56,715 nt of DNA from a virus (taxonomy: Duplodnaviria > Heunggongvirae > Uroviricota > Caudoviricetes): the IMG/VR virus record IMGVR_UViG_2622736468_000005; one strand, 5' to 3'. Positions within the stretch are counted from its first letter, which is position 1; each line of letters begins with the position of its first letter. The position numbers and the translations under genes were made by a program. Positions 25,169-26,829 of this stretch are shown here, in pieces. The notes beneath the pieces are model-generated. The model worked only from the letters and a program-made list of their open reading frames with translations. It made no database searches and was not told the DNA's origin.

Positions 25169-26829
25169 TTATATGAAAAAAACCGCATATTCTTTCTTTT
25201 TCGGTTCCGGGTTAAGGGACATCAGGGAGACCGCATTGAACAGCGCCATCAGCGGGTCAATTTTTCCCCGTCCACTGGCCTGTTTGGTGATAAGAATGGC
25301 GTTACCTTTAGGCTCCACCCGGGCATTGCCGACACACCAGGCCATCAGGGGCTGGTCACCATGCACCAGCACCCCTTCAGCCAGTTTGCGCTCGGTGGTT
25401 TTAATGGCCCCGCCCAGTTTCCAGCCCTGGCTTATCCCCACCACAATTCCGTCGGGGATCCCGGCTTCCGCCAGTGAATCCAGAATCTGCCCCACCCCTG
25501 ACGGGTCAATACCGATATGGTCCAGTAACTCAGCCTCATGAATGCGACGCACATATTCCGCCACTTCCGCCGTGTCATCCCCGACGCGCCGGACAATGGT
25601 CATATCTCCACAGGCAACAAGATCCTGAAACCGGGACGCCTCGCTCTTCCGTCGGACCACCGCGGTTTCATGCGCCCAGGCATGGCCCCAGCCCAGCCAT
25701 TCGCGGGTCTCCCGGTCACGCCCAATCACATACATCCCCAGCAGATCATCCAGCCCTCCGCCGTCAATCCCCACCGTCACCACATCAGCACGACGCAGGA
25801 TATCGTCCAGGCTGATACAACGGCCCTGCTCTTCCCAGAAATCAGCCCCCGCCCAGCGGTCAGAGCGCAGGGCAAGACCAATTTCCACATTGGCGTGTTT
25901 TGACATGAACCCCCGGAATGTCTCTTCACCGGCTTCCCGGGCTTTACGGTACTCCCGGTACAGAAAGGCCTCATCCACTGAATAGCCGAGATTAGGATTG
26001 ACCATGGCGAGGTTTTCCATCAGCAGGTGAGCCCCGCTTTCCACCATTTCAGGAGGGTGTTCAAATATCACCGGCAGAAAGTGCGGATCATGAATTTTGC
26101 CGTCGCGCACATCCCGGGCGTACTGCAGTTTCTGTCTGAACACCCCGGCGGGCGGTTCATTCGACTGGGTGGTCGTATACACCACAAACCCTTCCGGGCG
26201 GGAGGCAAGGCCGCCTATGGCTTCACGTAACATGTCCTCCGCCTTGCACTGCTTGCCAAACAGCCACAACTCATCAATCAGCGTACCCACGGACTTGATA
26301 CCGGACACCGTATTCGGATCGGCTGCCACCACCTTCAGGGTGGTGTCTGTCACCCGGTGGGTGATGGTCCGGATATGGGTCTGTACCTGGCAGAGGTCAT
26401 CCAGATCATCGTCACGTCGTACCATATCCCGGGCAGGGTTGAAGGCGTTGGCCGCCACCTCCACAGTCGGGGCCAGAATCGTGTAACCCGCCGCCTGCCG
26501 CCAGTTCAGTAACAGTGCAGTCATCATGATCCCCGCGGCCAGCGTGGACTTCGAGTTTTTCTTGGGATAAGGATAAAAACTTCCTTGATATGGCGTACAC
26601 CGGTCTGCGCATCGTAGGAGCCAAACAGGGCCGCCACCAGGTCAAACACCCACGGTGCACAGGACTCCCCGAACGTAGGGCTACCAGGTGCATCCACAAT
26701 CCGCAGTTGTTTAAAAATCGCCAGGGCATGTGCGGCCTCGTCCGGATAAATCGGATCCGGAATAATCGACAGCCCCTTTTTCAGGCGCTCTGCCCAGTCC
26801 GGGCAGGCTGTGCTCCATACAGGTATCAT
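25169..26829 (-). pseudogene. terL: terminase large subunit with 1-bp frameshift in the Walker-A-coding region (track ORFs 26524..26829 + 25169..26527)
   Basis: N-terminal ORF ends ...EVFILIPRKTRSPRWPRGS-stop; shifting -1 gives ...IPRKNSKSTLAAGIMMTALLL... continuous with the 452-aa ORF. Observed A5 (plus T5 at 26556..26560) where A6 would restore the frame. Confidence 0.8.

Follow-up and report, generated by a model that had tools for sequence, protein, structure and literature searches.

Background

The large terminase subunits (TerL) of the HK97 type combine an ATPase domain (PF03354) that holds a Walker A segment with a C-terminal, RNase H-like nuclease domain (PF20441), and the TerL of HK97 itself is represented by PDB entry 6Z6D. 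Terminase genes that are really broken have been described in prophages. In E. coli O157 Sakai, the defective lambdoid prophages are damaged by IS elements and by small lesions in genes for replication, morphogenesis or packaging, and a prophage without an intact terminase is packaged by the enzyme of a sibling prophage (Asadulghani et al. 2009, PMC2669165).

Here we consider a prophage whose TerL gene is split by a frameshift, in a stretch of 56,715 nucleotides (IMG/VR record IMGVR_UViG_2622736468_000005), which is referred to below as the window. In genome assemblies built from PacBio reads only, the residual errors are mainly single-base homopolymer miscounts. We propose that the TerL frameshift is, with high confidence, such an under-called homopolymer and not a real pseudogene.

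The packaging module and the terminase gene as written

The window has the gene order HNH, small terminase subunit (TerS), TerL, protease-capsid fusion and portal, which is also found in annotated relatives. The HNH endonuclease of this HK97-type packaging module (27678..28043, minus strand), TerS (Terminase_2, 187 aa; 26826..27389, minus strand) and the prohead protease-major capsid fusion (645 aa; 23168..25105, minus strand) are all intact. The stop codon of TerS overlaps the start codon of TerL, and the exact allele of the capsid fusion recurs in the second assembly described below.

TerL is written as two ORFs on the minus strand, in different frames, as the original prediction had stated. 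The N-terminal ORF of 101 aa (26524..26829) has no Pfam match alone, and the C-terminal ORF of 452 aa (25169..26527) matches TerL_nuclease (PF20441, E=8.8e-10) and no ATPase family. The ATG of the 101-aa ORF overlaps the TerS stop; its end, IPRKTRSPRWPRGS followed by the stop codon, is in a frame other than that of the 452-aa ORF, and its 12 C-terminal residues, RKTRSPRWPRGS, are out of frame. The ATG of the 452-aa ORF overlaps the stop of the 101-aa ORF, within TCATGATGA; it corresponds to M102 of the intact protein, and this ORF encodes the nuclease domain only. The split is present in the sequence as given: in a tblastn search, the 553-aa terminase annotated in NCTC86 aligns with both ORFs, each in its own frame. 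With residues 90-101 replaced in the first ORF and the second beginning only at M102, neither fragment would retain a P-loop, and a Pfam search gives no PF03354 ATPase match for either. The gene as written is thus unlike an HK97-type TerL, its ATPase domain being unrecognisable in both fragments.

One inserted base, placed anywhere within the 13-codon overlap, rejoins the two frames and yields a TerL of 553 aa, and the proposed continuity of the 452-aa ORF with the 101-aa ORF is borne out in this way. The repaired protein has both domains of the HK97 type, TerL_ATPase at residues 63-224 (PF03354, E=2.1e-11) and TerL_nuclease (PF20441, E=1.5e-9), and aligns with HK97 TerL (6Z6D) over residues 84-534. 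With a Walker A segment in the ATPase, an RNase H-like nuclease at the C-terminus and its place in the gene order, it has the features of an HK97-type TerL. Its sequence IPKKNSKST stands opposite IARKNGKTG of HK97 TerL and is read here, from this alignment, as the putative Walker A segment (KNSKST versus KNGKTG), HK97 TerL having a Gly where the P-loop of the window type has a Ser. The lesion was predicted to lie in the Walker A codons, and the alignment of P89-T96 (PKKNSKST) with IARKNGKT of 6Z6D agrees with that placement.

The site of the missing base

The original prediction put the deletion in an A6/T6 run at 26556-26560. No A6/T6 run exists in either the window or the intact gene. What lies at 26556..26560 (minus strand) is a run of T5, or A5 on the coding strand, and it is of the same length in every homologue examined. 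Where, then, is the missing base? Against the closest intact TerL genes, those of E2348/69 and NCTC86 (1662 nt), the gene of the window shows a single synonymous SNP (25586) and a single gap. At the gap, the homologues read ATC CCC AAG AAA AAC and the window reads ATC CCA AGA AAA AC, so that C4 has become C3. The run in question is G3 in the window (C3 on the coding strand; 26564..26566, minus strand), and C4 in the intact homologues and in the second assembly. In the MRE600 record, it is located at CP014197.1:2,552,112-2,552,114, and the three-C reading of the site is ATCCCAAGAAAAAC.

Adding a G at 26564-26566 gives a 553-aa protein that is 100% identical to WP_001339613.1 (...FILIPKKNSKSTLAAG..., with IPKKNSKST). 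Repair in the adjacent run, by an extra A, gives IPRKNSKST, that is, a K90R change. The motif IPRKNSKS, which had been taken for a restored GKS/T motif, does not hold up: 0 of the homologous copies examined have the sequence with R, PKKNSKST being the true motif. A lesion in the A/T run was rejected on these grounds, A5 being constant in all homologues. Alignment to intact TerL homologues had been named as a check on the prediction, and in that alignment the homologues span the junction as a single ORF of 553 aa. As judged from these sequences, the true site of the missing base is the C4 run in the codon of Pro89 and not the neighbouring A5.

The three-C allele in other genomes

With a 61-nt query centred on the site, 2357 places were found in 1158 of 5426 complete E. 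coli genomes, and none of them has the C3 allele; the best of these matches to the TerL query is 98.4% identical, with one gap. The complete genomes searched, a RefSeq collection with 5,426 from E. coli, do not include CP014197.1 itself. A pattern permitting C3 or C4 matched 65 IMG/VR contigs, all of them with C4, and the C3 allele has no exact match in the JGI metagenomes and was not found in INPHARED phages or GTDB representatives. Among the matches listed, all 10 of the 10 contigs with the exact capsid allele of the window have a 553-aa TerL.

The exact 101-aa product is on record once, in the 1059-bp Logan contig SRR12298836 (L006). This contig differs from the window by five SNPs, all of which are natural polymorphisms, and has the same C4-to-C3 allele of TerL. 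The sample is unrelated, and its C3 would have arisen by slippage on a separate occasion or through the same kind of systematic miscall. There is no sign of an inherited lesion or of further downstream decay in the counts of 0/2357 and 0/65, though L006 carries C3. A lineage-specific, inherited TerL pseudogene was accordingly rejected, C3 being seen only in this one contig of about 1 kb, which has another haplotype.

Other disruptions of TerL were encountered in the course of these comparisons. An ENA metagenome scaffold (L007, positions 6857-8511) has a 7-bp deletion, CCGCGGG, just past the Walker A codons, which leaves ORFs of 99 aa and 451 aa. IS629 is inserted in the TerL genes of the Stx2 phages 1717 and Stx2a_F349 (records FJ188381/AP012530).

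The distribution of the allele bears on whether the two frames could be joined by recoding. TerL would then be made by a -1 slip of tRNA-Lys on A_AAA_A (AGA AAA ACT), or by transcriptional slippage on the A5 run, with K90R in the product, and the split would be regulated or leaky. The local sequence lends itself to such a mechanism, in that the 0 frame and the downstream frame overlap by 13 codons, the -1 frame has no stop, tRNA-Lys re-pairs perfectly with A AAA after a -1 shift, and HK97 TerL has an R at the equivalent position. A canonical X XXY YYZ heptamer is nevertheless missing, the only motif being A_AAA_A, and for transcriptional slippage to be efficient a run longer than A5 is needed. 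Moreover, the two-frame arrangement is not conserved: a single ORF encodes TerL in all 2357 copies from E. coli, in all 65 from IMG/VR and in the second assembly of this strain, the homologous copies having C4 with the exception of L006. Because of this, recoding is excluded as far as conservation can speak, and both recoding and phase variation of TerL, for which there is no suitable tract, were rejected; we regard them as extremely improbable.

MRE600 and a second assembly

The window is 100% identical, without gaps, to CP014197.1 (GCA_001542675.2) over 20,822 bp and 13,893 bp, a window position plus 2,525,548 being the position in CP014197.1. The alleles of Q and of the exonuclease in the window also match that record exactly. 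CP014197 is the genome of E. coli MRE600 (PMC12851939). The assembly was made from one PacBio RS II SMRT cell (v3) with P5-C3 chemistry, HGAP 2.0 and Quiver, and no short reads are mentioned (PMC4825418).

A second assembly, GCA_901482365.1, has the exact capsid and tape-measure alleles of the window on its 3.55-Mb contig CABEEG010000004.1. Compared with the window, it shows 0 mismatches in 23,243 bp, 0 mismatches in 20,829 aligned columns, and one mismatch in 22,472 bp, of which 8.6 kb is host flank. An IS insertion and a 31-bp deletion in the O gene are common to both assemblies, and the junction of the O deletion and the left junction of the IS with DUF968 occur in 0 of the 5,426 complete E. 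coli genomes. Given the shared IS insertion, the shared 31-bp deletion, the 0-1 SNP and the identical host flank, we infer that GCA_901482365.1 comes from the same strain as CP014197.1, namely MRE600. Its TerL has C4 and is intact, with 553 aa.

A comparison of the two assemblies over positions 4148-56715 of the window (about 52.5 kb) turned up only six 1-bp deletions, a 7-bp stretch at the right junction of the IS and a single substitution. All six deletions are on the window side, at 11976, 17598, 26564, 27664, 40765 and 49677, and all are in G/C runs with a true length of 4-7. Five of the six hit genes (TerL, tail L, tail T, a Rem-like and a cro-like gene), and these genes are intact in GCA_901482365.1. 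Among runs of at least 4 bases in the window, 6 of 281 G/C runs are discrepant versus 0 of 585 A/T runs, and this imbalance points to a systematic process. No homopolymer discrepancy occurs in the 8.6 kb of host flank, so that all six are within the prophage.

Besides the TerL site, the lesions of the window were located by comparison with NCTC86, NCCP15648 and strain 102651. The minor tail protein L gene is split by a 1-bp deletion in a C4 run (11976..11979, minus strand) that is C5 in the second assembly, where the protein has 232 aa. The gene of tail assembly protein T is split in the same manner at a C3 run (17598..17600, minus strand; C4 in the second assembly). The intergenic run between the HNH and TerS genes is C6 in the window (27664..27669), C7 in the second assembly and C7 or C8 in other phages. 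A C4 run (40765..40768, minus strand; C5 in the second assembly) lies within a 73-aa gene of the Rem family, which is called there and not in CP014197.1. Finally, a C5 run (49678..49682, minus strand; C6 in the second assembly) has the 1-bp deletion that splits the cro-like YdaS gene, which is intact, with 91 aa, in GCA_901482365.1. At 49678, NCTC86 (CP019778.1) has the same short allele as the window. Over 29 kb, the window and NCTC86 differ by 10 SNPs and 3-4 small indels, a ratio that is suggestive but not decisive alone.

Several other differences deserve mention in their own right. The sole substitution between the assemblies in the 52.5 kb and the 8.6-kb flank is at 52480, T in the window and G in GCA_901482365.1, inside a dicB-like ORF (about 52354-52542). 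A run at 5620-5622, 3 nt upstream of the tail-fibre start, is T3 where most relatives have T4; both assemblies have T3, which marks it as a real variant and sets it apart from the G/C-run differences. Between the tail genes M and L, a 378-aa OmpC/NmpC-like porin is inserted as a moron (12474-13610, minus strand), and this insertion is absent from the prophages of NCTC86 and strain 102651 that were compared. No identical protein is on record for the exact gpL fragment or for the porin, because gene calls differ between annotations.

Origin of the frameshift

Two outcomes had been left open by the original prediction, a homopolymer sequencing error and a dead terminase in a cryptic prophage. The first is strongly supported: the assembly of the same strain is intact at TerL, and the differences between the assemblies are essentially 1-bp changes in the length of G/C runs. 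A dead terminase finds no support as far as TerL is concerned, the same-strain assembly having a TerL of 553 aa.

In the reading that we favour, the C4 run of the Pro89 codon, where the Walker A segment begins, would have been called as C3, and a consensus error of a long-read-only assembly would have split a 553-aa, HK97-type TerL on paper. From the discrepancy, its pattern and the recorded assembly method, the fault would seem to lie at the base-calling or consensus step. A sequencing artefact is indicated because the second assembly of the same strain has TerL intact. It is not plausible that two stocks of one strain would differ in 52 kb by six deletions in G/C runs, blind to genes, and one substitution, and chance insertions in the second assembly could not have restored five frames to the population consensus. 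Hence, the data are most economically read as an under-calling of some G/C homopolymers in CP014197.1.

The pattern is that of a long-read consensus error, with several 1-bp homopolymer discrepancies, almost no substitutions and genes hit indiscriminately, in an assembly from error-prone long reads without short-read polishing (PMC4825418). As in other assemblies from PacBio CLR reads only (HGAP/Quiver), the differences are of a single base, confined to homopolymers, coding and non-coding, and regardless of gene function; when the strain is assembled independently, they disappear, and short-read polishing is likewise lacking here. The present case departs from the generic one in that all six are deletions in G/C runs, none being in A/T runs, and in that the error is deduced from a comparison of assemblies. 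Some observations do speak against an under-call. L006, which is unrelated, has the same C3, so the deletion can occur or be called elsewhere; all six discrepancies are in the prophage and none in the 8.6-kb flank; and the second assembly is imperfect too, being without the 7 bp at the right junction of the IS.

Could the deletion be real in the MRE600 stock behind CP014197.1, with TerL as a recent pseudogene? Relaxed selection is plausible, given that both assemblies have real prophage lesions, a 31-bp deletion in an O-like gene and an IS629-type insertion in DUF968. Slippage of the polymerase routinely removes single bases from short G/C runs, the C3 allele recurs in the unrelated sample of L006, and TerL suffers other natural lesions, such as the 7-bp deletion in the same segment of L007 and IS629 in the Stx2 phages 1717 and F349. 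Were the deletion real, the prophage would be unable to package its own DNA unless another prophage supplied the terminase. However, the lesion is not reproduced in the independent sequencing of the same strain, where TerL is intact, and the 464 codons 3' of the shift have no amino-acid change. It would be implausible for two stocks of one strain to diverge over 52.5 kb by six G/C-homopolymer deletions, five within genes, and a single substitution, and the PacBio/HGAP method is known to leave homopolymer errors. A real deletion in this stock is, we believe, improbable.

In a broader version, all six G/C deletions would be real and would stem from a stock-specific burst of slippage in one prophage, for instance through error-prone replication of an induced copy that then re-integrated, with a low level of TerL made by -1 slippage on A_AAA_A and carrying K90R. 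We consider it very improbable. At the outset, no other genome seemed to share the frameshifts in L, T and TerL, the O deletion or the IS, and a decaying prophage with many real frameshifts was entertained; it was dropped for the homopolymer lesions, the second assembly being identical except at those runs.

State of the prophage and implications

Homopolymers aside, the prophage has lesions that both assemblies record. The O-like (DnaT-like/O) replication gene (about 48016-49022, minus strand) has a 31-bp deletion at 48598, through which one copy of a pair of 17-bp direct repeats (CGTGACTCGTCGTGACA) in an iteron-like region of the gene has been lost. The gene is frameshifted by it in both MRE600 assemblies, and the deletion is probably a real inactivating lesion. 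An IS3-family (IS629-like) element of 1310 bp (38079-39388), with orfA (108 aa) and orfB (296 aa) intact, interrupts the DUF968 gene and is flanked by a CTTA target duplication. By the right end of this IS, 7 bp (CTTACCA) are missing from GCA_901482365.1, and Logan contig SRR12158194 (L299) agrees with the window there.

In its O deletion and IS, the MRE600 prophage is like the defective lambdoid prophages of O157 Sakai, whereas its TerL lesion, unlike those of Sakai, is irreproducible between assemblies (PMC2669165). Because it is not reproducible, the present TerL case does not belong to the class of real terminase lesions. The prophage may be replication-defective through the O deletion and the IS insertion, independently of TerL, while its packaging module is most likely intact. 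In particular, the comparison of the assemblies suggests that TerL of MRE600 is most likely intact in the cell, where it would work together with TerS and the HNH endonuclease in a packaging motor of the usual HK97 type. Thus, the TerL split is almost certainly no real feature, and the finding is an ordinary one.

Its significance is mainly that of a caution. Work on ribosomes and tRNA makes wide use of MRE600, whose reference genome is CP014197.1, and in this 52.5-kb stretch that record would contain about one G/C-homopolymer under-call per 9 kb. The under-calls would have created false pseudogenes in TerL, the tail proteins L and T, and the Rem-like and cro-like genes, so that scoring prophage intactness, pseudogenes or recoding sites on CP014197.1 would be misleading.
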